Sequence record: PP761450.1
Strand: one strand, 5' to 3'
DNA from: Escherichia phage LHE287
DNA length: 64,000 bases
Shown: in pieces, positions 1 to 12,830 of the stretch
How the letters are laid out: each line of letters opens with the position of its first letter
Position numbering within the stretch: the stretch's first letter is position 1
Made by a program: the position numbers and the translations under genes
The notes under the pieces: generated by a model
Databases searched by the model: none
What the model was told of the DNA's origin: nothing
Seen by the model: only the letters and a program-made list of their open reading frames with translations

Positions 1-229
1 CAGAGCTATCAAAGTTGTGTCCAACCCGATCTTACAAGCCCGTATCCCGGTCTGGTTAAGACTTGTAAGTGGAAAGCCCTGGAAAAATAAACGCCTGTGG
101 CGAGGCTATGGTGCAAGCCAAAGACCCACAGAAGCGCATGCCGTGAGGCGCACAAACAGGCATGCATGAACTGATCATGCACAAACGGGATAAAGGGTTG
201 ACAGTCCTTGGTTGGCCACACAATAATTT

Positions 230-306
230 GGTCCTGTAGCTCAGTCGGTTAGAGCAGTGAACTCATAATTCATTGGTCATTGGTTCAAACCCAATCAGGA
301 TCACCA
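230..306 (+). tRNA. tRNA-Met (anticodon CAT; could be a lysidine-type Ile tRNA)
   Basis: Cloverleaf: acceptor GGTCCTG/CAGGATC, D-arm TAGCTCAGTCGGTTAGAGCA, anticodon stem-loop GTGAA-CTCATAA-TTCAT, T-arm ATTGG-TTCAAAC-CCAAT, 3' ACCA. Confidence 0.8.
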
Positions 307-560
307 TATTAAGGGGTGTGAAACATGACACTCTGACAAACACGGTAAGCGTTGCAGCCAGCTGTGTATAAAATGGGGATGACTCCACATCGGAAACGAT
401 GCCCCAACTTCCAGAAATGGTCAGGCGCAAAGCCTGTAAAGTTCCAGGAGATCGAACCAGAAGGCACTGGTCGCCAGTTAACCAATCGGCGCTGAGAAGC
501 GCGGGGAGTTGGGCTACGGCAGATCAAATGCTCAATCGGGTGTGAAGCCCGTCCAAATTC

Positions 561-644
561 GGGGGAGTACCAGAGTGGTCAAATGGGCCTGACTGTAAAT
601 CAGGTGTTTCGGCTTCGGTGGTTCGAATCCATCCTCCCCCACCA
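561..644 (+). tRNA. tRNA-Tyr (anticodon GTA), long variable arm
   Basis: Acceptor GGGGGAG/CTCCCCC, anticodon stem-loop CCTGA-CTGTAAA-TCAGG, long variable arm, T-loop GGTTCGAATCC, 3' ACCA. Confidence 0.8.
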
Positions 645-650
645 AATTAC

Positions 651-724
651 AGGAGCATAGCTAAGCGGTAAGGCAATGGGTTTGATCCCATGATCTCAGG
701 TTCGACTCCTGACGCGCTCTCCCA
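651..724 (+). tRNA. tRNA-like element, possibly a degenerate tRNA; anticodon unresolved
   Basis: Canonical T-arm TCAGG-TTCGACT-CCTGA and D-loop AGCGGTAA, but the acceptor stem pairs poorly and the anticodon hairpin ATGGG-TTTGAT-CCCAT has a 6-nt loop. Confidence 0.3.
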
Positions 725-780
725 TAGGGTAGTACCAGTGCAAGCGTGTAGTCTTTCAACCCATCCCATCGATGTGGTAT

Positions 781-809
781 AGCCGGATATCCTATCCGGC
801 TTTCTTTTT
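781..809 (+). terminator. rho-independent terminator after the tRNA cluster
   Basis: Perfect hairpin AGCCGGATA-TCC-TATCCGGCT followed by TTCTTTTT. Confidence 0.7.
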
Positions 810-933
810 ATCCCTGTCTTATTATCTTCTTATCGGCCCAAGCATGTCCTCCTTTATCATAGTTTGTTCAACGATACAAAGGGGGTTTAAAATTTAACCG
901 TTAACCCCCTGTCATAGATTTGAGGATACACCG

Positions 934-1590
934 ATGCGTAATGTTTCTATCTGGGAATTGAACGAAGTGATTTCCCGTGACACCCCTCCAATTGTCAGAC
1001 TCTTCCAATACAAGGGTGTCAAGCGCACTCTGAATGAGTTCCTGTCGCCTGTTTACGTCTACCGTGATGGCGGGTTCTTCCGCCGCGATAAAAACATCCC
1101 GAACCTTGGTATGACGTTTGATTTGAGTATCAAAGGCCAGGTTGTATTGATGGGTTATGGTAGCCTGGAACAATCTGAGAAAGGTCAGGGCGCTCCACTT
1201 ATGGTCTTCGGTTCTTTTGAACAAGCCGTGCACTGGCTGATCAGAAACGGATATGATTTCTATGGCGAAGAAAGCGCCAATTGGCGTCGTCGCAAGGTCA
1301 AGTCTGTTGATCTGGTGGATTTGAATCTGATGTACCAGGCCATGGCTCGCGAGTACGAAAAGAATCTCGTCAAGCCTGTCGCTCAGGAGAACAATGTTGT
1401 TAACACTACATCTGAGTCTTCTCATCATGACGTGAACATCGTTCCGGCCTGTGAAACGAAAGCGCCGACACCACCTACTCCTCCGGCCAGTCGTGTTCTG
1501 AATGATCAGGGCGCTCCGGTAAAACAAAAGGTCAAGAAGCCGACTTTCATGGAAAACATGATGAAGTTCCTTCGTCTGTTCAAGAAGTAA
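934..1590 (+). CDS. hypothetical protein (218 aa)
   Basis: ATG preceded by GAGGA RBS; no recognisable motif; lies 70 nt upstream of the PLP-enzyme gene. Confidence 0.55.
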   Translation: MRNVSIWELNEVISRDTPPIVRLFQYKGVKRTLNEFLSPVYVYRDGGFFRRDKNIPNLGMTFDLSIKGQVVLMGYGSLEQSEKGQGAPLMVFGSFEQAVHWLIRNGYDFYGEESANWRRRKVKSVDLVDLNLMYQAMAREYEKNLVKPVAQENNVVNTTSESSHHDVNIVPACETKAPTPPTPPASRVLNDQGAPVKQKVKKPTFMENMMKFLRLFKK

Positions 1591-1659
1591 TCCGAGATTC
1601 TCCTTTTCTATACTCCTGTAGATACACTATGATAAGCCAATGTCTACAGGAGAAATAGA

Positions 1660-2853
1660 ATGAACAAGACCATTTTCGATACCCTTTCCCTCGACCGCAA
1701 TCTGGTCCATTGGGAAGATTATCTCTACAAGCACACCCCGTGCGAACTTGTCGTCAACCCCGAAACCAATCAGCAGGTCTGGTTCAAGCGTGAAGATTAT
1801 TTTGCGCCGCTGTCCAATTATGCAAATGGACAGCAGGGCATCAACGGCAGCAAACTCCGCCAGGCCATCTGGTTGATGGTTGAGCACCTCAAGGCCGGAG
1901 GCTCCCCTGACATCATCCATGGTACTGTCGTTGGTAGTCCGCAGTCCCCTATGGCGACGGCAGTCTCTCGGCACTTCGGTGGCAAGACAACCACTGTACT
2001 CGGAGCGACCAAACCCACCACCTGTATGAACCATGAAATGGTGAAAATGAGCGCCTGGTTCGGTAGTGAGTTCAACTTCGTCGGCTCGGGTTACAACAGC
2101 ACCATCCAGCCGCGCTGTAAGAAGTTGATCGAACAACAGAATCCAAAGGCGTACTATCTGGAATATGGTATCACCCTCGACCATACAGCGCATTCTCCTG
2201 AGCGCATCGCTGGCTTCCATATGCTGGGTGGCGAGCAGGTTGCCAACATCCCAGACCATATCACCGACCTGATTATCCCAGCCGGATCGTGCAACTCTTG
2301 CACAAGCATCCTGACCGGGCTGGCAATGCATCCGAAGCCTAATCTGAAGCGTGTGTATCTGATTGGCATCGGTCCTAACCGCCTTGACTTTATCGAGAGC
2401 CGTCTGCGCATCATCGGCAAACATGCCAATCTGCCGCACATTGTCGACTTCACCCGTCGCTATCACGACAACCCAGACTATGTACACGGCAAGAAGGAGC
2501 TTCAGCATGCCTCTAAGAGCGTTTCGCTGGCTGGCCTCCTAAGTGGTATCAGGAAGAAGGAAGAGCCAGAGGTCGTGCTTCCTCGCTTTGAGGTACACCA
2601 TTGGGATCTTCACACCACTAATTGGGTTCGTTACAATGACCTGATGGAATATCAGTGGGGTGATATCGAATTGCATCCTCGCTATGAAGGCAAGGTCATG
2701 ACCTGGGTTCAGCAACACAAGCCCGAGTTGCTGAACGAGAACACTCTGTTCTGGATTGTGGGCAGCAAGCCGTACATTGAGCCAATGAAGACAGCATGCC
2801 CTGAGCTGGCTATCCCCGAAGCAGTACCTGTAAACGAATTCACCCCTTCCTGA
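1660..2853 (+). CDS. fold-type II PLP-dependent enzyme (ACC deaminase / D-cysteine desulfhydrase / Trp-synthase-beta superfamily)
   Basis: N-terminal motif FKREDYF...GINGSKLRQA resembles the KRED...GGNKxRKLE PLP-lysine region; later loop PAGSCNSCTS in the position of the phosphate-binding glycine loop; RBS AGGAGA. Confidence 0.55.
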   Translation: MNKTIFDTLSLDRNLVHWEDYLYKHTPCELVVNPETNQQVWFKREDYFAPLSNYANGQQGINGSKLRQAIWLMVEHLKAGGSPDIIHGTVVGSPQSPMATAVSRHFGGKTTTVLGATKPTTCMNHEMVKMSAWFGSEFNFVGSGYNSTIQPRCKKLIEQQNPKAYYLEYGITLDHTAHSPERIAGFHMLGGEQVANIPDHITDLIIPAGSCNSCTSILTGLAMHPKPNLKRVYLIGIGPNRLDFIESRLRIIGKHANLPHIVDFTRRYHDNPDYVHGKKELQHASKSVSLAGLLSGIRKKEEPEVVLPRFEVHHWDLHTTNWVRYNDLMEYQWGDIELHPRYEGKVMTWVQQHKPELLNENTLFWIVGSKPYIEPMKTACPELAIPEAVPVNEFTPS

Positions 2854-2988
2854 TCCCTCCTAAATACCCCATACAACCAGTGTGGGGTATCTATGAAACC
2901 TTCCTCCAATATTTCCTAGAGGCGTCCTGTACAAACCAGGCCTGGCACCTAAATACCCCCATATGGCTAACCCACTGAGGAACCCAAC

Positions 2989-3447
2989 ATGCCAACCTCC
3001 AAATTGTTTGAATCAGAATACACCAATGACATCCCTGTATGGACTGGTGTTCAAGACGGTATCACGATTGAGCTGTTTGATCGTGAAGAGACAGGCGCGG
3101 AAGAGATCTATGCAGGCGTTGAAGGCACTGATGTTGTCCGCGCCGCCGTAGCACTTGCTACCTTCCTGGAAGATGCACCGATTGATGGTGTGCCGTTCGA
3201 GGCGCACGTAGATCCCAAGGATCCGACCTCTATCATCATTACAGTGAATGGGGTGCCATACACTTCCTACAGTATCGAGACGGACGAAGAGGGCAGCGGA
3301 GCGCTGTATATTGCCACCGACCTGCAGCTGGAAGACGATGAGATGGATTATCTGATTCAGAACGGGGTGCTGCCACCGTTTACCGATGAAGAACTGGACA
3401 CGGAACTGGCTGCTGTCGGGGACGACGAAGACTTCTGGGAAGAATAA
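2989..3447 (+). CDS. highly acidic protein (152 aa), candidate DNA mimic
   Basis: Asp/Glu-rich throughout (EELDTELAAVGDDEDFWEE); RBS GAGGA; followed by a bidirectional terminator. Confidence 0.55.
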   Translation: MPTSKLFESEYTNDIPVWTGVQDGITIELFDREETGAEEIYAGVEGTDVVRAAVALATFLEDAPIDGVPFEAHVDPKDPTSIIITVNGVPYTSYSIETDEEGSGALYIATDLQLEDDEMDYLIQNGVLPPFTDEELDTELAAVGDDEDFWEE

Positions 3448-3448
3448 G

Positions 3449-3471
3449 AAAAGGGGCTTTAAGCCCCTTTC
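3449..3471. terminator. bidirectional terminator between convergent genes
   Basis: Palindrome AAAGGGGCTT-t-AAGCCCCTTT with A-run upstream and T-run downstream. Confidence 0.65.
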
Positions 3472-3472
3472 T

Positions 3473-4024
3473 TCATTTCACCTTGCGAGTTGGATATTGG
3501 TTAAAGAGTTTGCCCAGCTTAGACACGTTGATGATTGTCTGGGTCTTCCAGCGCTGGATCCCTTCCGGGGTAGTCACGGTCAGGATTGAATGCCCCCAAA
3601 TGTGGGAACCGTCCAGCACAGCCGCGCTGTGGCTACCAATCTTGTCTTCCAGTTTGCAAATGAAAGATTCATACTGATGGGCAGCGTTGCAACGGGCTTC
3701 CTTGATGAACAGACGCTGGCGCTCTGGATCAGACTTGACGATGTTAGGCGCACCCACTTGATAAGAGCGGTTCGGCGGGTTATTGTCGGCGGTCAGGCTC
3801 ATATACAAAGACTGCTTTGCCTTCATGCGATGGTAATCGTGGTGACCCATTCTGACGCCAACAGTGGATGGCCAAGGAGCGCACTTCTGAAGATCCCAGC
3901 CGTTGGCGGCTAGATCGTCCATCACGTTCTTGATGATTTTGTTCGCGTACTGCTCGGCAGCTTCTTCGGCCTGCGACAACAGAGGCTCAACAGCGATACG
4001 GACAGCAGTTTTTGGCATTGTCAT
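3473..4024 (-). CDS. hypothetical protein (183 aa)
   Basis: ATG with AAGGA RBS on the minus strand; no recognisable motif. Confidence 0.55.
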   Translation of the reverse strand: MTMPKTAVRIAVEPLLSQAEEAAEQYANKIIKNVMDDLAANGWDLQKCAPWPSTVGVRMGHHDYHRMKAKQSLYMSLTADNNPPNRSYQVGAPNIVKSDPERQRLFIKEARCNAAHQYESFICKLEDKIGSHSAAVLDGSHIWGHSILTVTTPEGIQRWKTQTIINVSKLGKLFNQYPTRKVK

Positions 4025-4047
4025 GATATAGTCCTTCAGTTCAAAGT

Positions 4048-4065
4048 AAGCCCCCTGAGGGGCTT
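4048..4065 (-). terminator. hairpin downstream of the minus-strand gene (terminator or RNA-stability element)
   Basis: AAGCCCC-CTGA-GGGGCTT stem-loop; only a weak T-run. Confidence 0.35.
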
Positions 4066-4072
4066 CAGTCGA

Positions 4073-4630
4073 TTAGAAGCGGGAATCCAGCCAGGCGTTC
4101 TTTTCGTTCTGCCACTCCCAAGCGGCCTGACCGCCAGCCATGATCACTTCCAGGGAAGGAGTATTGTCATCCTCGCCGCCGTGAAGGTCAGGGTCGAAGC
4201 CGTCGTCTTCAGGATCGTCTTCACATTCATTCTGATAAGCGGAATATTCGATGTAATGGGCTTCGGCTTCGCAATCCATGTCACCCAGAGCTTCCTCGAG
4301 GGACATTTTGCCTTCGGCAATCAGCTCGGCAGTCGCATCGTCCAGGCCTGCGTCTTTCGCTTCAACGAACAGTTCGTGACGTTTCTGGAAAAGGAAGAAG
4401 TTCATGGCTTCAATGCGTGAGTCGAAGTACTCTTTGCGGGGAATCATGATTTCACGACCATCGACTTTGCTTACCATCAGCAGGTGTGAACCGTATTCAA
4501 CCAGGTAGCGACCGCCTTTCACTGGGTTGGAACCGTCAATTGTACCCAGAGTGGTGATTGCGCGGCCTTCTTCAGTACCGTACATTACAGTTTTGCCAGA
4601 TTTGGATTGAGCGATAATTTCGATTGCCAT
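4073..4630 (-). CDS. hypothetical protein with acidic C-terminal tail (185 aa)
   Basis: ATG with GAAGGAAA RBS; C-terminal DDPEDDGFDPDLHGGEDD. Confidence 0.55.
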   Translation of the reverse strand: MAIEIIAQSKSGKTVMYGTEEGRAITTLGTIDGSNPVKGGRYLVEYGSHLLMVSKVDGREIMIPRKEYFDSRIEAMNFFLFQKRHELFVEAKDAGLDDATAELIAEGKMSLEEALGDMDCEAEAHYIEYSAYQNECEDDPEDDGFDPDLHGGEDDNTPSLEVIMAGGQAAWEWQNEKNAWLDSRF

Positions 4631-4675
4631 GATGTATTTCCTTCTCTTCAGATTGTTGTTCGTACTACAATTAGA

Positions 4676-4704
4676 AGTATACGCCAGTTATTGAAGAAGT
4701 AAAC
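4676..4704 (-). promoter_or_regulatory. T4-early-type sigma70 promoter (GTTTAC-17-TATACT) for the minus-strand gene 4073..4630
   Basis: Minus strand reads TTATTGAATAAA-GTTTAC-ttcttcaataactggcg-TATACT, followed by the RBS and ATG of the downstream gene. Confidence 0.45.
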
Positions 4705-4721
4705 TTTATTCAATAAATATT

Positions 4722-4934
4722 TTAATAAATTTTGAACTCTGCTCCCTTGTACGTTGCCGATCCTCGTTCTATGAGGCCGTCAGGGACAATTACCTTTGTC
4801 GGCCAACCACCATCTGGAGCCTTAACAGTCAGGCGCGTCTTGTGATCTCCCAGCTGTGTTTGTTCATAGATCCTTCCGCGTACTATCGTCGCCCCGCCCT
4901 GGGTGACGAGCAATCTCTTGTTTACCACATTCAT
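4722..4934 (-). CDS. small hypothetical protein (70 aa)
   Basis: ATG preceded by AGGGA RBS. Confidence 0.45.
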   Translation of the reverse strand: MNVVNKRLLVTQGGATIVRGRIYEQTQLGDHKTRLTVKAPDGGWPTKVIVPDGLIERGSATYKGAEFKIY

Positions 4935-4976
4935 TCCCTAAACACCAAAAGAAAGGGGAGTTTCCTCCCCTTGAAC

Positions 4977-5549
4977 TTATTTCTTCAGATCAGGCCACGC
5001 ACCAGAGGTCGCAGTAGACCCAGCTGGGGGAGCAGACTCAAGATCGGGAGAACCCGACTGAGTAACAACAGTGGGATCTTTCTGTACGACCCGAACCCCA
5101 AATTGCTTGAGAGCATCCATAGCTTGGGCTTTTCGCCTGTTGCTTTTGTAGTGGTTGTAGCCTTTGATACCGAATGATGCACTAATTGCTGTCAATAACG
5201 AATAGGTATACCATTCAGGTGCAGTATCTAGTGCCTGAAGGCCACCGATTACTGCTTTGATGAAATCCCCTTTATGATACTCACCAGGGAACAGAATCAG
5301 TTCCACAACCGGAGCAGTCATGACGAGGATGGCGGGTATGGCCAACACGATAGTCCAGAATTCGTCTTTCCAAGACCCGCCGACTTCGGTAATCTTAGAC
5401 AGCTCCCAATCTGAGGAGGACTTGATGGCCTCCAGCTTGACGTCGTGTTTGGCCTGTACAACTTCCCGCTTATATTGGATCAAATCAGTCCCGAGGTTCC
5501 AGAGTTGCTTGAGCACCCCTGGGATCATACCAACGAGGGGGATTGCCAT
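4977..5549 (-). CDS. membrane protein (about 190 aa)
   Basis: Track ORF begins at an alternative codon; internal ATG (MAIPLVGMIPG) has an AAGGAG RBS; hydrophobic N-terminus and a second hydrophobic segment. Confidence 0.5.
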   Translation of the reverse strand: MAIPLVGMIPGVLKQLWNLGTDLIQYKREVVQAKHDVKLEAIKSSSDWELSKITEVGGSWKDEFWTIVLAIPAILVMTAPVVELILFPGEYHKGDFIKAVIGGLQALDTAPEWYTYSLLTAISASFGIKGYNHYKSNRRKAQAMDALKQFGVRVVQKDPTVVTQSGSPDLESAPPAGSTATSGAWPDLKK

Positions 5550-5628
5550 AATAAACTCCTTGGTCAATGAATGGCTCTATGGTTAAATATGCCCACGTGC
5601 TAACGGCACGGATAACCTGGAGAATTAC

Positions 5629-8628
5629 ATGACCGTTTTCTATACGAACGTTGCCCGCAGGGGCAATGACCTGTTGATTCGAATTGCAGATGACATGGGT
5701 AATCGCCGTCTGTTGAAAAAGAAATTCGAACCCACTCTCTATTTACCCACGGCTGACTATTCAAATGTTGAAAAGGTCGGTCTTCTCAATGAACCCCTGG
5801 TAGCCAAGCAGTTCCCTTCCATGCGTGACGCTGACAACTATCTTGAAGAGTACAAGGAAGTCCAGGGTGCTTCCATTTACGGACAGACCGATTATGCATA
5901 CCAGTTCATCGCCCATAGCTTTCCTGGAAAGATTGAGCCGGATTACTCCAACATCCATATTGCTAACCTCGATATCGAAGTGTTCTCCGCCGGGTGGAAA
6001 GACGGAAAGATGACCAAAGGTCCATTCCCTCACCCAACCATTGAGCAGCAGACGTTCAAAGGGAATGAGGCGCGCATTCGCCGCTTCCATAAACAAGTGC
6101 TGGCTAACCATGAATTTGTCCGTGAGCACTTCCCTGGTTCTTTCATCAGCAACAACGTCACTGATCAGTTCCCTATCATTGATAGCAATGGCAAGATCAC
6201 CCAGGACATGAATGCGGCGTTCCCCATTACCCTGATCCAGCTTCAGGATATGGCGACCAATAAGTTCATGGTCTGGGGTATGCCCTGTGCCAAAGATCGT
6301 AACAAATTCGCATACGACACCGAAGACAAAGAGATCGGCGGCCTTGAGGTTGTTTATCAGGAGTTCACCACCGAACAAGATCTGCTGCGCTCGTTCCTAG
6401 ACTTCTGGTCACAGCGTCAGTTCGACGGCTGGACAGGCTGGAACATTGAGACGTTTGATAGCCCTTATCTTGTTGAGCGCATGAATCAGGTTCTGGGTGA
6501 AGCCGAAACATCGCGCCTCAGTCCTTGGGGTATCATTAAGAAGCGTATCATTCGCGATAAGAAGGGCGATATCACGACGTATCAGTTCGTGGGTTGCCCT
6601 ATGCTCGATTATATGCAGATCTACAAGAAACACACGTACACCACCCGTGAACGCTACTCTCTTGACTGGATTGCGTATTGTGAGCTGGGTGAGAAGAAGA
6701 TGGACTACAGTGAGAGCAAGTCGCTCTTTGATCTGTACTTCAACGACTACTGCAAACACACCCGATATGGTATCAAAGACGTTAAGCTGGTATGGCGACT
6801 TGAACAGAAGCTGCGCCTGCTCCAGCTGATGTTCGTCCTGGCCTACCGCACCAAGTCCAACTATGAAGACGGTCTGGGCACTGTGGCTCCGTGGCTGGCC
6901 ATGTGCTACTATCGCCTGTACGAGAAGGGGATAGTGCCTAAGATCCAGCGTGTATACGATGGTCCGACCGACTTTGAGGGCGCATACGTCATGGATGTGA
7001 CACCAGGAATCTACTTCTGGGTCTTCTCGGAAGATTTGAACTCCCTGTATCCTCACATCATACAGCAGTACAACCTCGGTCCAGAGACTATCGTTGGCGA
7101 CAAACACCAGCGCCGCGAGATTATTGAGGCTATGTGTGAAGAGCTGGCTGCTCAGATGAATAACATGGCAACGCCGATGCACAAACGTCGGTTGATGAAA
7201 GCCCTTCACGACAAGCTGTTGCGTGCGGTTGACGAACGCCTGCAGGTTGTTGATGAGTTGGTTGCCCTGGGTGAGTTCCACTTTGAAACCCTGCGCCGCT
7301 ACAACGTGTCGTTCACGCCGAACGTTCAATTCTTCAGCAACGAGAAGATGTCGTTCCTGTCTGAAATCATGCGTGGTATCTACAGCGACCGTAAAGTAGA
7401 GAAGGCCAAGGGTCTGAAGTATGAGCAGTGGGCTGGCTGGTGTAAAGAGATGTCGAAGGGCGACTTCCATCTTGAGTCTGCCATGAAGTCTCGCTACTAT
7501 GACCCAGAGTGGTATGAAGAGCACAAGAACATTGATCTTGATGCCCTGACCGAAGTGATGAAGAAGTGGGAAGACCTGGGCGTTGCTCAAGATACCCTAC
7601 AGCAAGGTCTGAAGATCTTGATGAACGCAGGTTATGGCGCTATCTCGAACGTCTGGTTCAAAGAGTACTTCAACCTCAACATTGCCGAAGCCATCACCAC
7701 ATCCGGTCAGCTGATCAACAAGTGGAACAAGCGTTACACTGATGACTATCTGAACAAGCTGTGTGGTACAACAGGCCAGGACTTCGTCATCGCAGGTGAT
7801 ACCGACTCCAACTACATCTGCATTGAGCGTCTTGTCAAGCAGTTGTGGCCTGATGTTACTGACCATCATGCTATGGTTGATAATATCGACCAATGGATCA
7901 AAGACAACTACCAGCCGAAGACCAATGAGTGGGCACAGCTTCTGTGTAACACCATGAACGGATTTGAACAGCGCATGGTATGGGAGCGTGAGGTCATTGC
8001 GTCAGCCGCTGTCTGGCGAGCCAAGAAGATGTATGCCATGGCCGTGTACGACAGTGAGGGTATCAAGTACGAGAAGCCGAAGATCAAGTTCAAAGGTCTG
8101 GAAGCCCGCAAGTCCACCACGCCGGAATGGTGTCGTGAGCGTCTTGTCAAGTGTTATGAGAAGATCCTACTCGGCACCGAAGAGGAAGTACAGGCGCTCA
8201 TCTCCCAGTACAAAGAGGAGTACATGAAACTCTCTGTAGACGATATCGCCAAGGCTTCCGGCGTGTCCGACATAGAGAAGTGTGTGGCTGCTGACGGATC
8301 GTTCATCTCTGGTGCTCATTTTGCTGCCAAGGCGTGTGTGGGCTACAACCGTCTGGTTGAGAAGAACGAAGATCTGGGTCTACCGATGATCGAGTCGGGT
8401 GATAAGGTACAGATGGTGTTGTTGAAGCCGGGCAACCCGTTTGGGCAGAACTACTTTGCATATCCTGAGTTCTTCCCCGAGGAGCTTGGTCTGGGCAAAT
8501 GGGTGGATTATCAGGCGGCCTTTGAGAAGTCCTTCATTGATCCGATTCAGTCTATCCTCGACGTGGTCGGCTGGTCACACAAGCGCCGTGTGAACCTTCT
8601 TGCCATGATGCAAAAGAAGAAAGGTTGA
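5629..8628 (+). CDS. 43: family B DNA polymerase (T4 gp43-like), 999 aa
   Basis: Exonuclease motif LDIEV, polymerase motif A DLNSLYP, motif C GDTDS; size and T4-like genomic context. Confidence 0.95.
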   Translation: MTVFYTNVARRGNDLLIRIADDMGNRRLLKKKFEPTLYLPTADYSNVEKVGLLNEPLVAKQFPSMRDADNYLEEYKEVQGASIYGQTDYAYQFIAHSFPGKIEPDYSNIHIANLDIEVFSAGWKDGKMTKGPFPHPTIEQQTFKGNEARIRRFHKQVLANHEFVREHFPGSFISNNVTDQFPIIDSNGKITQDMNAAFPITLIQLQDMATNKFMVWGMPCAKDRNKFAYDTEDKEIGGLEVVYQEFTTEQDLLRSFLDFWSQRQFDGWTGWNIETFDSPYLVERMNQVLGEAETSRLSPWGIIKKRIIRDKKGDITTYQFVGCPMLDYMQIYKKHTYTTRERYSLDWIAYCELGEKKMDYSESKSLFDLYFNDYCKHTRYGIKDVKLVWRLEQKLRLLQLMFVLAYRTKSNYEDGLGTVAPWLAMCYYRLYEKGIVPKIQRVYDGPTDFEGAYVMDVTPGIYFWVFSEDLNSLYPHIIQQYNLGPETIVGDKHQRREIIEAMCEELAAQMNNMATPMHKRRLMKALHDKLLRAVDERLQVVDELVALGEFHFETLRRYNVSFTPNVQFFSNEKMSFLSEIMRGIYSDRKVEKAKGLKYEQWAGWCKEMSKGDFHLESAMKSRYYDPEWYEEHKNIDLDALTEVMKKWEDLGVAQDTLQQGLKILMNAGYGAISNVWFKEYFNLNIAEAITTSGQLINKWNKRYTDDYLNKLCGTTGQDFVIAGDTDSNYICIERLVKQLWPDVTDHHAMVDNIDQWIKDNYQPKTNEWAQLLCNTMNGFEQRMVWEREVIASAAVWRAKKMYAMAVYDSEGIKYEKPKIKFKGLEARKSTTPEWCRERLVKCYEKILLGTEEEVQALISQYKEEYMKLSVDDIAKASGVSDIEKCVAADGSFISGAHFAAKACVGYNRLVEKNEDLGLPMIESGDKVQMVLLKPGNPFGQNYFAYPEFFPEELGLGKWVDYQAAFEKSFIDPIQSILDVVGWSHKRRVNLLAMMQKKKG

Positions 8629-8654
8629 TTCAATAAACCAAAGGGGGATATAAT
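8626..8654 (+). promoter_or_regulatory. sigma70-like promoter TTGATT-17-TATAAT with the -10 in a hairpin loop
   Basis: TTGATT overlaps the polymerase stop codon; 17-nt spacer; TATAAT forms the loop of hairpin GGGGGA-TATAAT-TCCCCC. Confidence 0.45.
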
Positions 8655-8690
8655 TCCCCCTGTTAACCCTTTGACAAACAGGTGATTGAA

Positions 8691-9032
8691 ATGAAACTCA
8701 ATAAGATTCTTCTGGTGTGTGCTCTGGCTTTCTCTACCACTGCGTGTTCCACCCTTCTGGACGTTGCTTCTACTGTAGACCTTGACGCGCCGACGTTCAC
8801 CAATGAGCAGGCCGTGTCCAAGATGGAAGACACCATCAAGGCGCATGCAGCACTGGACAACACTACCCCAGGTCCGCTCCAAACTGTCTGCAACTATGAC
8901 GATTCCATCCAGGAAGACGAAACTTACCACTGCATCACCTACGTGAAGCAGGCCTCCGTCGTTCTGTATGCAGATTGTACCGAAGAACAGTGTGTTGCTA
9001 CAGGCTACGATAAAGTTGAGGAAGACAAATGA
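8691..9032 (+). CDS. putative secreted protein or lipoprotein (113 aa)
   Basis: Signal-peptide-like N-terminus MKLNKILLVCALAFSTTAC with Cys after the hydrophobic core; internal ATG chosen for its AGGTGA RBS. Confidence 0.5.
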   Translation: MKLNKILLVCALAFSTTACSTLLDVASTVDLDAPTFTNEQAVSKMEDTIKAHAALDNTTPGPLQTVCNYDDSIQEDETYHCITYVKQASVVLYADCTEEQCVATGYDKVEEDK

Positions 9033-9805
9033 ACAACCTGGTTTGTATCTATGATATGAAATCAAAGGTCGGTGGCCTGTATCGCGTCCTCGTGGATGTT
9101 GACCTGACGTTGGTCGACAGCCTCTCCCCTTGGGTGCAGTGGTTTAACGAAGAGAATCTCAGCTTATCCAAGCATTATGACGGTCATGGACCAGCGCCGT
9201 TCCAGCCGATTACCAAAGAGTGTTATATGTCCCATGCTGGCGACCTGGCTATTCTGATGCGTGAACGTGCGCATCCGGCGTGGCTATACCATGAAGTCCA
9301 ATTGGGGATGCACAAACAACGTGTGCCAAGCGGTAACGATCCTATGGACTGGTGGCGTCGCCCTGACTTGTACGCCAAGATGAACCCACTTCCTGGCGCT
9401 TACGAGTTCCTGGTGAATCTGAAGAAGATTCTGCTCGAAGACTTTGACAATGTTGAATTCATCGCAGTGTCCAAGTGTGAGCCGGAACACGAGCGCAGCA
9501 AGCGCCAGTTTGTCTATGACAAGTTCCCTGGTATCTTCAACGGGTTTGTCAGCACCGACGAAAAGCATCTGCTGGCTGGCGATGTCCTGATTGATGACAA
9601 TCCGAAGTATGTCGAGCCATGCGGCCTGAACAACATCTTTGTCATCTTTGTTCCTCAGGGCAATTATGAAAAACTGGATCTTTCGAATTCGGAAGACATG
9701 CTTTATATTAAACCAGTAGAAGGCCAGAATCACTTCGACTTCCTGAACCGCAATATTGTCGAAGTGGTGAACCGCCTGATTAGTCATTATCAATACGTCC
9801 GATAG
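9029..9805 (+). CDS. HAD-superfamily phosphatase, candidate 5'(3')-deoxyribonucleotidase
   Basis: HAD motif I VDVDLTLVDS near the N-terminus and DD motif VLIDDNPKY; start overlaps the upstream stop. Confidence 0.45.
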   Translation: MNNLVCIYDMKSKVGGLYRVLVDVDLTLVDSLSPWVQWFNEENLSLSKHYDGHGPAPFQPITKECYMSHAGDLAILMRERAHPAWLYHEVQLGMHKQRVPSGNDPMDWWRRPDLYAKMNPLPGAYEFLVNLKKILLEDFDNVEFIAVSKCEPEHERSKRQFVYDKFPGIFNGFVSTDEKHLLAGDVLIDDNPKYVEPCGLNNIFVIFVPQGNYEKLDLSNSEDMLYIKPVEGQNHFDFLNRNIVEVVNRLISHYQYVR

Positions 9806-9814
9806 GAGGACATC

Positions 9815-10120
9815 GTGCAAGAACAATCCAAGTTCGGGGAAACCCCAGACAAGCATTCCGGTGATAGCGACATGGATGGTGTGATTATCTATGTGAACAA
9901 CTTCATTCGTCAGCAGGAGACTCCAACTCCTATCGGTGCAGCCAAGGCTCTTCATGATGTACTGGTGAAGATCGGCCAGCGCTCTGAAGCAGATGAAATC
10001 TTCTATAACTTCGACGACCAGTATAAAGTTAAGTTTGAAGAGAATGGCCACCCACAGGTTGCTGTGTTCTGGGCACCTTGGCTGGGCGGCGTGAGCTGGC
10101 GTATTGAGGATGCTGTGTAA
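9815..10120 (+). CDS. hypothetical protein (101 aa), GTG start
   Basis: GTG start with strong AGGAGGA RBS; stop overlaps the next start (TAATG). Confidence 0.5.
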   Translation: MQEQSKFGETPDKHSGDSDMDGVIIYVNNFIRQQETPTPIGAAKALHDVLVKIGQRSEADEIFYNFDDQYKVKFEENGHPQVAVFWAPWLGGVSWRIEDAV

Positions 10121-11037
10121 TGGCAAAAATTATCGTAGTGAAAGGAACCAGCGGTACGGGTAAGGGCACCCGTGTTGTCCAGTTCATCGAATGGCTGCGC
10201 ACTAAGCTGGAGCCTACCGAACTGACCTACACCGTTGGTGACAAGACTCGCCCGTTTGGCTTGAAGTTCGGAGAGCTGAAGTTAATCTTCGTTGGACAGT
10301 ACACCGTGTCTAACAAATCCGGCCTGGCTTCCTGGACTTCAATGGATGCAATCCATGCTGCTACAGGCTCAGGCGATATTGCTCGTGATCTAATCAAGTG
10401 CTGGTTGGTTCAGGGATACACTCTGGTGTGCGAGGGTGAACCCCTCATGCTGTCGGACAAATGGCGTCCTGAATGGATGTTCAAGAACTATCCGATTGAA
10501 TCATTGGCGCTGCTGTACTTTGCGTACCCCGACCGCTATCAGTACGATGCTCGTATCCGTGGTCGATCTGGTAAAGAAGCAGGGAACTCCGGCTGGTCGC
10601 GCAACGAATCTTACTACAAGGAGTTTGAGAAGTCGAAGGCCGAAATGCTGGCGCTGGGCTTCACTGTGGCTGTTGATGATTACAGCGGACAGGATATCCT
10701 GTATAAATCACCGGATGCCAACACCCAGGAGTTCACGACCAAACAGCAGTCCGAGTTGGCGGTACTACCGTTCGACGCCCCGCTGTGGGTTGTGGGTAAT
10801 GCGATTTGTCATCAGATACGCTCTGAACTGCGCGGTGTTGACATGCACACCAAAGACTTCTACGCCTACTGTGAAACCAATCCGATGACTCGTGAAATCG
10901 GCGGCCAGGATCCTTTGGCGCACAGAGTCCCTGAGAAGCCGCAGAAGGCATCCAAAACTAAAACCAAGGCGAGCGCCCAGCCAGAAGCAACGAAGGCAGC
11001 GTCGCGCTCTCTCCTTGACCTGATGAAGAAGGGGTGA
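10120..11037 (+). CDS. P-loop kinase, paralog of 51529..52188; candidate 5-hmdU DNA kinase
   Basis: Walker A GTSGTGKGT at the N-terminus, Walker-B-like LVCEGEP; shares motif order with the second P-loop protein; basic low-complexity C-terminus. Confidence 0.5.
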   Translation: MAKIIVVKGTSGTGKGTRVVQFIEWLRTKLEPTELTYTVGDKTRPFGLKFGELKLIFVGQYTVSNKSGLASWTSMDAIHAATGSGDIARDLIKCWLVQGYTLVCEGEPLMLSDKWRPEWMFKNYPIESLALLYFAYPDRYQYDARIRGRSGKEAGNSGWSRNESYYKEFEKSKAEMLALGFTVAVDDYSGQDILYKSPDANTQEFTTKQQSELAVLPFDAPLWVVGNAICHQIRSELRGVDMHTKDFYAYCETNPMTREIGGQDPLAHRVPEKPQKASKTKTKASAQPEATKAASRSLLDLMKKG

Positions 11038-11039
11038 TC

Positions 11040-11237
11040 ATGAAACGGTTGTCTAATTATCTGTTGTTCATTGGTCTGGTTATGGCAGCCGTTTCAATGT
11101 GTACTGCCCTAGCCTATCATTTCACCCCTCTGGACTTAACAACCTCAGAGAAGTTGAACGTGACTGTGATGTACTGTATTGGCGCGGTGATGTCTATCGG
11201 CGCTGCTGGTTACAAAATATTCAAGGAACCAAAATGA
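11040..11237 (+). CDS. small membrane protein (about 65 aa)
   Basis: Two hydrophobic segments; ATG with GGGGTGA RBS. Confidence 0.4.
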   Translation: MKRLSNYLLFIGLVMAAVSMCTALAYHFTPLDLTTSEKLNVTVMYCIGAVMSIGAAGYKIFKEPK

Positions 11238-11611
11238 AAATTCAAATTCCTCGCGATGCTGTGGCTGTTGCGATCGACTACACCGGAAACGCCAAGCACA
11301 TTACTGCCGTGCGCCTGATTCCTGAAAAGAACTGCGTCATCCCTCAGTTCCAACTGAATGCCAATCCGTCATCCAAAGACTTCGGCAAGTGGTTGCAGGC
11401 TGCTCCGTTCCGTACCCAGACGAACGCTCAGATGTTCATCTCGGGTAAGACTCACACTGCAGCCCGTCTGTGGTTCGTGACCGCTGACCGTCGCTTTGTC
11501 GATATGTGGGAACGTCCGATGGGGTTCGTGAAGCCGGAAGATATTCAGCTGGCTCCTGAGCCTGAAGCTGTGGCTCCTGAAGAGGAAGCGAAAGATGCAT
11601 CATTTATCTAA
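11234..11611 (+). CDS. hypothetical protein (125 aa)
   Basis: Start overlaps the upstream stop (ATGA); internal ATG of the track ORF 11099..11611. Confidence 0.45.
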   Translation: MKIQIPRDAVAVAIDYTGNAKHITAVRLIPEKNCVIPQFQLNANPSSKDFGKWLQAAPFRTQTNAQMFISGKTHTAARLWFVTADRRFVDMWERPMGFVKPEDIQLAPEPEAVAPEEEAKDASFI

Positions 11612-12830
11612 AATGCCGACGGGCTATACGCCTCCGGCTGAATGGAAGTACCCGATTGACCTGGCTGTTGATTATCGCAAGCCTGAGAATCGCATGTACC
11701 TGCTCAAGGCTTGGGTGGAGGCGCTGTCCTACACAGAAGAGCACAACCAGCAGATGCGTCTGATGGACTATGCGATCGAAGTCACTGAAGGCATCAGCCT
11801 CGAACAGAAAGTCGAGCGCAAGATCTGGATGGCATTCCTGTGGGGTTGTTGCTATAACGCCGTCGGGCCGTGGACGATCTACAGTGAGTTCCCTGTGCCA
11901 CCTCAGTCTAAGGAAGAGATGCAGCGCTTCTCTGATTGGTATAATCTGAACTTTGATCGCATGCGATTCGATACCGACTGTCGCTACCGCAAGTCCAAGA
12001 TGATTCCGTGTGTTCAGTCCTATATTGACTGGCTGGCTGGTCGTACTCAATATGACGCTTTCCGTGGGATGTTGGTGTGCATCGATAAGACAGAACAATT
12101 CACCCAGCTGTGGGACACGGCGATGTCCTGGAAATACTTCGGTCGCCTGAGCGCCTGGAACTTCCTAGAAGCCCTGAACATGGTCTTCGGGAACGAATAC
12201 ACCATTGACGTCCCTGGCTTCATGCTGCGTGATCGTGATGGAAGCGAGTCCAACCGTAATGGCGCGGCGTTCTTGTCCAACCGTGACGATTGGGTGACTA
12301 AACACGGGAAGAAAAAGATCAACGGTTGTCCTATCACGGATGAAGAGTGTGACATCCTTGAGGCCGACCTTGAGCAGGCGTTCCAGGATTGTGTGGCTGA
12401 GTTCGGGCACCTGACGTTCATCAACCGCCTGAACTTTGAAACCTCCGGCGCTTGTTGGCTGAAGAAATTCTTCCGACTGAAGAATACCCGTTACATCGGG
12501 TGGGACGCAGAGCGTACCTGGGATGAGATAGACTACATGGAACGCGTCTGGCCTGAATACTCCTGCGCAGCGCTCTGGGAAGCCCGTTCGCTCTGGCTGC
12601 CAGATACCCTGTTGTGCGAAAAGGCTCCTGCAGGGCACGTTCCAGGCGTCCAGAAGTGGAAGATGCCTGTATTCTTTGAGACTGGTGTTCCTCTGCATAT
12701 CTGGCACCTGCAAAAGGGTACGCGCTGGGAACCGTCCGAGGTGTGTACGAACCTGAAGATGCCTGTGCGTAAGGTTGAGGACAAGTCGAAGTCCAGCAGT
12801 GTCAACCTCATGGCACTCTTGAAACGCTGA
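11595..12830 (+). CDS. hypothetical protein (411 aa), Trp/Cys-rich; candidate DNA-modification enzyme
   Basis: ATG with GAGGAAG RBS; co-transcribed downstream of the P-loop kinase; no motif recognised by eye. Confidence 0.5.
   Translation: MHHLSKMPTGYTPPAEWKYPIDLAVDYRKPENRMYLLKAWVEALSYTEEHNQQMRLMDYAIEVTEGISLEQKVERKIWMAFLWGCCYNAVGPWTIYSEFPVPPQSKEEMQRFSDWYNLNFDRMRFDTDCRYRKSKMIPCVQSYIDWLAGRTQYDAFRGMLVCIDKTEQFTQLWDTAMSWKYFGRLSAWNFLEALNMVFGNEYTIDVPGFMLRDRDGSESNRNGAAFLSNRDDWVTKHGKKKINGCPITDEECDILEADLEQAFQDCVAEFGHLTFINRLNFETSGACWLKKFFRLKNTRYIGWDAERTWDEIDYMERVWPEYSCAALWEARSLWLPDTLLCEKAPAGHVPGVQKWKMPVFFETGVPLHIWHLQKGTRWEPSEVCTNLKMPVRKVEDKSKSSSVNLMALLKR

Follow-up and report, generated by a model that had tools for sequence, protein, structure and literature searches.

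What is encoded in the first 930 nucleotides (nt) of the genome of Escherichia phage LHE287, a stretch in which no protein gene is apparent? The window analyzed here is a 64,000-nt piece of sequence record PP761450.1, and a first inspection of its letters (hereinafter, the sequence-only reading) described positions 1-930 as a structured leader with transfer RNA (tRNA) genes, a tRNA-like remnant, a terminator and several hairpins. By sequence comparison, the window is the start of an Agtrevirus-like Ackermannviridae phage genome: positions 1-1000 are ~94-95% identical to Escherichia phages PC3, PH4, A221, ZQ1 and RPN242, and positions 1000-12000 share 96% identity with AV101, A221 and RPN242. 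The 1-930 segment is the 3' part of a non-coding RNA and tRNA island of the Ackermannviridae. We consider it likely that this segment is a single, protein-free transcription unit of the plus strand, and that two of its conserved modules, denoted A and B2, are released as stable RNAs acting in their own right.

The best-supported structured RNA of the region is not the spacer between the two tRNA genes, to which the sequence-only reading had drawn attention, but the segment 16-220 (module A). Alignment of 21 distinct copies of this module from five genera (mean column identity 90%) yielded a consensus fold of 50 base pairs that form a closed domain of nine helices, H1 to H9 (see the Table). Standard pairs account for 99.2% of the 1,050 cells of this fold, and 13 of the 50 pairs show compensatory changes on both sides, a number reached in none of 500 shuffles; in a control in which the partners were slid by 1-3 columns, there were 0-2 compensatory pairs and 27-38% pairing. 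The compensatory changes occur in H1, H2, H5, H6, H7 and H8, in several lineages, and the loop of H7 always conforms to the GNRA pattern (GUGA, GUAA, GCAA or GCGA). The cells that deviate from Watson-Crick pairing are overwhelmingly G-U when read on the plus strand, far above A-C, which identifies the plus-strand RNA as the selected molecule. Thus, the comparative data show that the secondary structure of module A is maintained by selection as plus-strand RNA. Two of its helices had been noticed before as separate hairpins of a structured leader: CTTACAAG/CTTGTAAG is found at 31-38/62-69, as part of H2, and TGCATGA/TCATGCA is H8, both with compensatory changes in the relatives. The leader is structured indeed, but these hairpins belong to one closed domain.

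Within module A, the 22-nt stretch GGAAAGCCCUGGAAAAAUAAAC is unchanged in Agtrevirus, Kuttervirus, Limestonevirus, Taipeivirus and Miltonvirus and, apart from positions 78-81, which belong to H4, is mostly unpaired. The apical internal loop of H2 (window 43-61), GUAUCC ... GGUUAAGAC, is nearly invariant as well; we take it to resemble the 11-nt receptor of GNRA tetraloops, with C-G pairs swapped, and, by analogy, the GNRA loop of H7 (143-146) might dock into it. A similarity of GGAAAGCCC...ACAGAA in module A to the P4 motif of RNase P was also considered and rejected, given that no RNase P model matched at E-values up to 10.

The search for further copies covered a collection of 50,697 phage records that does not include the genome of the window itself. 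Module A was detected by BLAST in 271 of these records, and nhmmer found it as a single copy in each of 34 genomes or loci, with no second copy of A or B2 in the window or the loci. Neither module was matched in a BLAST search of 5,426 E. coli genomes, and sensitive BLAST with each spacer against the phage collection retrieved Ackermannviridae-type phages only. In a scan of GTDB, with one genome per bacterial species, the invariant 22-mer turned up in one record only, a 526-bp scaffold assigned to Flavobacterium poyangense (NZ_JAALLN010000218.1, locus L066), which, given its size, is probably a phage contamination. A metagenome scan for the A motif returned 31 stretches, two of which are real homologues, and a scan of IMG/VR brought up mostly the same isolate genomes again. 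No family of Rfam 15 matched A or B2 (window 1-1000, E-values up to 10), the search returning tRNA and chance-level matches only; the loci of phages Vi01 and PC3, compared to Rfam at permissive E-values, similarly gave tRNAs and chance-level matches only. The fold of module A matches no described RNA family and, given the outcome of the Rfam and homology searches, both A and B2 fall outside any such family.

Module B2 fills most of the spacer between the two tRNA genes (307-560). The sequence-only reading had suggested that this spacer, counted as 255 nt, could encode a stable small RNA, as in phage T4; it is 254 nt long and appears to be a good candidate on account of its extreme conservation, although the support comes without covariation. 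The identity of B2 across Agtrevirus-like phages, Kuttervirus and Taipeivirus is 92.7-98.6% (92.7-93.2% for the Taipeivirus copies), compared to ~70-85% for the neighbouring coding sequences of PC3 versus those of phages Menlow or K751, so that the conservation of B2 equals that of the tRNAs and exceeds that of the adjacent genes. The consensus fold of B2 consists of 55 pairs, with 99.7% of the cells paired; the one-sided changes mostly leave G-U pairs, pairing being retained about 8 times against 2 breaks. A hairpin with a GAAA loop (388-392/397-401) keeps its stem while the loops vary in the relatives. The GCGC-tgagaa-GCGC hairpin, previously placed near 491-504, is real and its stem is kept in the relatives, but it lies 2 nt to the left (489-492/499-502); its loop is UGAGAA, UGAUAA, UGUGAA, UUACGA or UUCG. 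B2 always runs up to the first base of a tRNA gene, but the identity of that tRNA (Ser, Tyr or Gln) varies with the phage. Since the scans yielded few divergent homologues, B2 is too invariant for the structure test; from its conservation, we regard it as a probable functional RNA.

The two tRNA genes that flank the spacer are both bona fide. The call of tRNA-Tyr(GUA) is upheld; its counterpart in Klebsiella phage K751 is 96.4% identical, and, in the alignment, the tRNA occupies the exact site of tRNA-Ser(GCU) in PC3 and its close relatives. The first tRNA, with the anticodon CAU, had been labelled tRNA-Met; it is a real tRNA, but its closest counterpart is the E. coli tRNA-Ile(CAU). All of its best E. 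coli matches are annotated as tRNA-Ile and carry CAT, and phage fGh-Ecl02 has an identical gene that is annotated as tRNA-Ile as well. C4 and C5 of its acceptor stem, the determinants recognized by TilS, are invariant in five sequences. The tRNA-Ile of T4 is likewise an AUA-reading tRNA of the lysidine type, and the tRNA at hand probably is an AUA-reading tRNA-Ile2 of the same type, to judge from these sequence features.

The arrangement of the modules was mapped in 12 annotated relatives (Agtrevirus-like phages, Kuttervirus, Limestonevirus, Taipeivirus and Miltonvirus; where labels are needed, L008 is PC3, L002 is AV101 and L006 is KNP4). Module A, mapped here as window 1-229, is always the first in the cluster. 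The order in AV101 and Det7 is A - tRNA(CAU) - S1 - Asn - S2 - Tyr - B2 - Ser - X, where X is a tRNA-like element discussed below; the S1-Asn-S2-Tyr block is missing from PC3 and RPN242. In K751, the order is A ... Met - S1 - Trp ... B2 - Tyr - Gln - X, and in the window it is A - tRNA(CAU) - B1 - B2 - Tyr, followed by a Gln-like element that continues into the end of X. B1 can form a hairpin (313-319/328-334) in the minimum free energy (MFE) fold. The cluster is, by these alignments, a mosaic in which tRNA cassettes are shuffled among a fixed set of spacer modules. The motif CCAAATT(AC) is present in the window at 553-559, that is, at the 3' end of B2, and at 641-650, and in AV101 at ~1198-1209; it is repeated after the CCA of tRNA-Tyr or tRNA-Ser, directly 5' of tRNA-Gln (L005, L012) and of X, and could be a shared processing site or a junction of cassette exchange.

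Element X, an RNA of ~155 nt, is the last member of the tRNA cluster in the relatives examined. In the consensus of 10 sequences, two long arms, a T-arm and an acceptor stem of 7 bp meet in a four-way junction, and 11 of the 41 pairs show compensatory changes, including those in the acceptor stem (GGGCGUG/CGCGCUC versus GAGUGUG/CGCACUC). By this covariation, X is a genuine tRNA-like RNA. The loops of its long arms, UGCAU and AUGCA, are complementary, which suggests a kissing contact.

The window retains only the end of X. The third tRNA-like element of the sequence-only reading, described as combining a perfect T-arm with a poor acceptor stem and a 6-nt anticodon loop, has all these features, but a three-way alignment reveals a hybrid of tRNA-Gln and X rather than a locally decayed tRNA. 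Menlow and K751 have a tRNA-Gln(UUG) to which window positions 645-705 are identical up to the T-arm, with two exceptions, a C-to-T change in the D-stem that still leaves a G-U pair and the loss of the first base of the anticodon loop (CTTTGAT to TTTGAT), so that the loop is UUUGAU as opposed to CUUUGAU in the intact tRNA-Gln. From TCAGGTTCGA onward, the window is an exact copy of the 3' end of X in AV101 and PC3, including CGCGCTCTCCCA and the trailer. Because the sequence is tRNA-Gln-like before and X-like after the 10-mer shared by the two T-arms, the crossover maps to this 10-mer; and because the acceptor strands come from different genes, a perfect T-arm (696-712) is combined with an acceptor stem in which 4 of the 7 positions pair, one as G-U (with three non-pairs in the Rfam alignment). 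The alignment thus shows the third element to be a recombination hybrid formed within a 10-nt microhomology of the T-arms. The programs for tRNA detection disagree on this element: the Rfam tRNA model, to which its D-arm (GCU/GGC) and T-arm (UCAGG-UUCGACU-CCUGA) align, accepts 651-720 just above the threshold (32.0 bits versus the gathering score of 29; E 1.4e-4), ARAGORN makes no tRNA call for 651-724, and the MFE fold contains no cloverleaf. K751 carries tRNA-Gln and X side by side, and the fused arrangement of the window is seen in no other record of the phage collection and so appears to be a recent deletion product. Almost certainly, the third element is a pseudogene produced by a recent deletion or replacement; the body of X was lost from this phage in the same event, leaving the last ~29 nt (696-724). 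Deprived of its partner, the 3' acceptor strand ACGCGCU (712-718) is paired in the MFE fold with AGCGUGU (743-749), a part of the trailer; as the intact X of the relatives precedes the same trailer, 743-749 could compete with the X acceptor stem.

The relatives also allow a view of the sequence that precedes the window. The ~2 kb upstream of module A contain no credible genes in these phages and are a mosaic of conserved blocks, some of them 90-96% identical between genera, with compensatory pairs in local consensus folds. At positions 1908-1997 of PC3, there is a tRNA-like sequence that has a typical D-arm (UAGCUCAG...AGAGCA) and a 7-bp acceptor stem and whose anticodon region is enlarged by a 20-nt insert; its Rfam tRNA score, 24.2 bits, is below the threshold. 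In KNP4, ARAGORN reports a 92-nt 'tRNA-Cys(aca)' at 1983-2074, within the non-coding DNA upstream. A further element, Y (PC3 2691-2815, with homologues in 16 loci), is a self-contained, expanded tRNA-like RNA of ~125 nt, which has no annotation in the records of the relatives examined. It combines the acceptor stem GCCGUU/AACGGC with a long arm (AUCUGACU.../...AGUCAGAU) and the T-arm UGGG-UUCGACU-CCCU; its conservation starts exactly at the first G, and its 3' end, ...UGGGUUCGACUCCCUAAAACGGC(U/A)CCA, is encoded.

Outside the window, some 1.1 kb before its first position, PC3 contains a sequence that resembles the tag template of transfer-messenger RNA (tmRNA; PC3 2363-2395), with homologues in L003, L005, L006, L007, L010 and L012. 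This is a frame of 10 codons that lacks a start codon, follows ...AAAUAAAU, with an A-rich leader in front, and is kept through synonymous changes; the peptides, each followed by a stop codon, are ANDSEVLMAA in PC3, ANDNTFLAVA in Det7, Vi01, SenALZ1, Menlow and K751, and ANDNAYLMVA in KNP4. A conserved, start-less frame after an A-rich leader is characteristic of the tag templates of tmRNAs, and the peptides resemble proteobacterial tags. The Rfam tmRNA matches of this region are all below the threshold (18-21 bits), ARAGORN detected no tmRNA in the relatives, and attempts to join the tag frame to a canonical tRNA-like domain, as in a canonical tmRNA, failed.

With respect to transcription, the predicted terminator at 781-809 was recovered by the scan and is conserved in the relatives; its homologue is the only terminator-like site in the 3.3 kb of the homologous region of PC3, and no terminator precedes 781 in the window. 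The sigma-70-like match at 198-227 was rejected as a promoter of the tRNA genes: its -10 element ends 3 nt before the tRNA, so that the start would fall inside the tRNA, and its -35 element coincides with the H9 loop, the Taipeivirus and Miltonvirus sequences having CTAGCA or CGAGCA at this place. Such a role is improbable, and the genuine promoter or promoters must be located further upstream, outside the window; PC3 has promoter-like sites there. The start of the window cuts a 17-bp hairpin, which in PC3 is formed by ~3441-3457 and 3501-3517.

Features of the 1-930 segment of the window, with the position of element X in related phages
Feature	Position	Strand	Description and evidence
3' arm of 17-bp hairpin	1-17	+	5' arm upstream of window; AACTTTGATGGCTCTGG ... 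CCAGAGCTATCAAAGTT in relatives
Module A	16-220	+	closed nine-helix RNA domain; RNAalifold consensus, 50 pairs, 21 distinct sequences
H1	16-26/210-220		closing helix
H2	27-38/62-72
H3	46-47/54-55
H4	78-81/186-189
H5	95-100/126-131
H6	104-107/116-119
H7	140-142/147-149		GNRA loop 143-146
H8	163-169/175-181
H9	194-197/206-209
Invariant stretch GGAAAGCCCUGGAAAAAUAAAC	71-92	+	22 nt; all 21 sequences
Sigma-70-like match	198-227	+	TTGACA-18-AATAAT, 11/12; scan of the window
tRNA, anticodon CAU	230-306	+	ARAGORN; Rfam tRNA 70.6 bits
B1	307-339	+	junction after loss of S1-tRNA-Asn-S2-tRNA-Tyr block (present in AV101, Det7); alignment, module map
Module B2	340-560	+	ultra-conserved spacer; 3' end ...CCCGUCCAAAUU directly before next tRNA
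tRNA-Tyr(GUA)	561-644	+	ARAGORN; Rfam tRNA 61.4 bits
Pseudo-tRNA	651-724	+	tRNA-Gln(UUG) 5' part, position 32 deleted; X T-arm 3' half, 3' acceptor strand, CCCA tail
Crossover zone TCAGGTTCGA	696-705	+	10-mer common to tRNA-Gln and X T-arms; three-way alignment
Trailer, X end to terminator	725-780	+	conserved in Agtrevirus-like phages; 88% in Limestonevirus
Intrinsic terminator	781-809	+	9-bp stem 781-801, 5 G-C pairs, 3-nt loop, then TTCTTTTT; T-run to 809
Element X in relatives	AV101 1208-1363; L003 4359-4508; L007 5380-5530; L005 5391-5541; L012 4782-4931

How the unit might work can be outlined as follows. The transcript would run through A, tRNA(CAU), B1/B2, tRNA-Tyr and the dead tRNA-Gln::X and would stop at the terminator. 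Downstream of A and B2, the 5' end of the adjoining tRNA would be cleaved by RNase P; A ends 9 nt before its tRNA. RNase E and exonucleases would act at the CCA-AAUU trailers, and in this manner the tRNA-processing enzymes of the host would release A (~205 nt) and B2 (220-250 nt) as discrete stable RNAs. Module A, and probably B2, would then function as RNAs rather than as inert spacers, and we favour a role in trans, on translation-related or tRNA-related processes of the host, which seems the most likely option because expanded tRNA-like RNAs and a tag template similar to that of tmRNA belong to the island as well; alternatively, they may serve in cis, as folding or processing scaffolds of the precursor. 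More speculatively, A and probably B2 may represent new classes of trans-acting RNAs within an RNA-only island of ~4 kb, along with the tRNAs, X, Y and the divergent tmRNA-like tag template, that reprogramme or protect host translation, by ribosome rescue and tagging or as decoys for tRNA-targeting defence nucleases; we view this extended scenario as possible but doubtful.

Several observations weigh against the interpretation of A and B2 as stable, functional RNAs. Among the 55 pairs of B2, compensatory changes affect one, which 402 of 500 shuffles also reach, the sequences being very similar, and the z-score of the single-sequence MFE is only moderate both for the spacer (-2.8) and for A (-2.1). 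Vi01 lacks B2, Limestonevirus has lost half of it, and the module is, by implication, dispensable. At 79-83%, the identity of A to its Taipeivirus and Miltonvirus homologues does not exceed the values of some neighbouring genes, so that the argument for A rests on covariation rather than on conservation, and on comparative data rather than on the stability of a single sequence. The sole strong sigma-70 match is badly placed for the tRNA, as described above; the expression and processing of A and B2 are predictions, and no function can be derived from the sequence. Some of these facts fit a view under which the spacers are inert filler between tRNAs and owe their identity to recombination and to gene conversion by homing endonucleases in a mosaic hot spot, and the conservation of B2 could partly reflect such homogenisation. 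In this region, tRNA cassettes are swapped, inserted and deleted between phages, and HNH homing endonucleases are annotated beside or over it in Mutine and CBA120 (PMC3184105). Homogenisation, however, cannot produce the 13 covarying pairs and the preserved GNRA loop of module A; in B2, it is at odds with the predominance of one-sided substitutions that keep pairing and with the hairpin at 489-502, where the stem is kept while the loop is replaced, once by a UUCG tetraloop. We find the inert-filler explanation unlikely; as the reason for the conservation of B2, homogenisation by recombination is nonetheless a serious competitor.

Still less credence can be given to the possibility that the hybrid third element works as a non-canonical tRNA or a tRNA-like decoy, for instance, a bait for anticodon nucleases or a frameshift-type decoder. 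The Rfam score, the intact D-arm, anticodon stem and T-arm, and the retained CCCA tail of X are what one would expect of such a molecule, but the mismatched acceptor strands, the shortened anticodon loop, the verdict of ARAGORN and the MFE fold all disagree, and an arrangement that is limited to this phage and that destroyed X as well looks like a recent deletion product; a function is quite improbable. A role of the modules as DNA, that is, as a replication origin, a packaging site or a promoter or other regulatory region, could be evoked by the near-consensus sigma-70 match and by the fact that at least one other record (AV101) starts at exactly the first base of the window. The start of a genome record, however, is a convention rather than a mapped terminus, Taipeivirus and Miltonvirus do not share the promoter-like hexamers, and the pairing in A is maintained through G-U pairs of the plus strand, which are A-C mismatches on the other strand and irrelevant in duplex DNA; we deem a role at the DNA level very unlikely. 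Finally, the segment might encode one or more small proteins, as annotated in some relatives. It contains short open reading frames (ORFs) of 41-72 amino acids, the depositors of Det7 placed DET7_199 over window 1-170, and minus-strand ORFs are recorded in Menlow and as CECAV_050. These annotations disagree in strand and frame across the records, whereas the ORFs of 1-930, none longer than 72 amino acids, are interrupted by 1- and 2-nt indels between close relatives, the six longest match no PHROG family, and the substitutions track the RNA pairing. On these comparisons, the earlier verdict that 1-930 holds no convincing protein gene stands, the segment is shown to be non-coding, and a small-protein explanation has next to nothing to recommend it.

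Beyond the terminator, the sequence upstream of the first downstream gene (934-1590, ATG at 934) contains GTTTGTTCAA... (window 864-908), which also precedes tRNA-Asn in AV101 and, given this recurrence, may be a phage promoter motif; the hairpin GGGGGTT...AACCCCC at 881-906 is conserved in Det7. The gene itself has no Pfam match, and the next one (1660-2853, 397 amino acids) has a match to the PALP family of pyridoxal-phosphate-dependent enzymes below the cut-off (31.5 versus 35 bits) and is labelled threonine dehydratase or pyridoxal-phosphate enzyme in the relatives. The Pfam search with these two genes gave no RNA-related clue.

The phages concerned, namely, ViI, CBA120, Det7, LIMEstone and the Agtrevirus group, are widely used in biocontrol and phage therapy, and the annotations of Ackermannviridae genomes show, over 3-4 kb, either nothing or spurious small ORFs; the locus has been deposited in GenBank many times, without annotation or mis-annotated. 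With E. coli and Salmonella as hosts, these phages are readily accessible to genetics and RNA biochemistry, and the hybrid of the window, a natural deletion of X, is a ready-made mutant for the study of the function of X. Much of the potential importance hinges on the tag-like module that lies upstream of the window.

Extra RNAs in phage tRNA clusters are not without precedent. In the tRNA cluster of T4, the species 1 and 2 RNAs (rnaC and rnaD) are stable and are cut from the tRNA precursor. Like these, A and B2 are non-tRNA RNAs in the range of ~120-250 nt that are embedded among phage tRNA genes in one transcription unit: A adjoins tRNA(CAU), B2 fills the gap between two tRNAs, and no terminator intervenes before 781. 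By analogy, release by the tRNA-processing enzymes of the host is presumed, and X has a tRNA-like end, as do the T4 RNAs. A and B2 differ from the T4 RNAs in being larger and in showing no sequence similarity to rnaC or rnaD in the BLAST search of the phage collection.

The likeness to tmRNA (ssrA) concerns the relatives: the start-less, 10-codon tag frame after an A-rich leader, and the acceptor and T-arm domains of X and Y, which end in NCCA or CCCA. The differences are substantial, given that the tag frame lies outside the window, that its tmRNA scores are far below the threshold and ARAGORN does not recognize it, that no canonical tRNA-like domain encloses the tag, and that neither X nor Y has the G3-U70 pair. 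The Gln::X hybrid is comparable to recombinant tRNA pseudogenes, in that two tRNA-type genes are joined in the T-arm, resulting in a chimera with a mismatched acceptor stem; it differs from them in that one of the partners is the 155-nt tRNA-like X, the body of which was removed too.

For the Ackermannviridae themselves, Kutter et al. 2011 (PMC3184105) described the tRNA cluster of CBA120 and ViI and flagged the gene-poor stretch upstream as unusual, without an explanation. Compared to that account, the spacers are recognized here as conserved modules, one of them with a covarying fold, and the degenerate tRNA of the window is a different object, the Gln::X hybrid. A 2024 review of the Ackermannviridae mentions neither tRNAs nor non-coding RNA, and our literature search found no relevant transcriptomics or non-coding RNA work on this family.

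The large structured RNAs GOLLD and ROOL of phages and prophages are often found near tRNA islands, and tRNAs are sometimes located in the GOLLD linker (PMC12286853). The locus described here resembles them in that structured RNA domains are interleaved with tRNAs, within a protein-free island of ~4 kb next to phage tRNAs. Unlike GOLLD and ROOL, A is ~205 nt long, as opposed to 580-800 nt or more, with >500 nt as the criterion of the family; there was no Rfam match to GOLLD or ROOL at permissive E-values in the window, Vi01 or PC3; and the hosts are Enterobacterales infected by lytic phages. In kind, therefore, such RNAs are already known, as extra RNAs in phage tRNA clusters (T4) and as structured RNAs beside phage tRNA islands (GOLLD, ROOL), and the present locus adds an example from Enterobacterales phages to this unexplained association between tRNA islands and elaborate non-coding RNAs.

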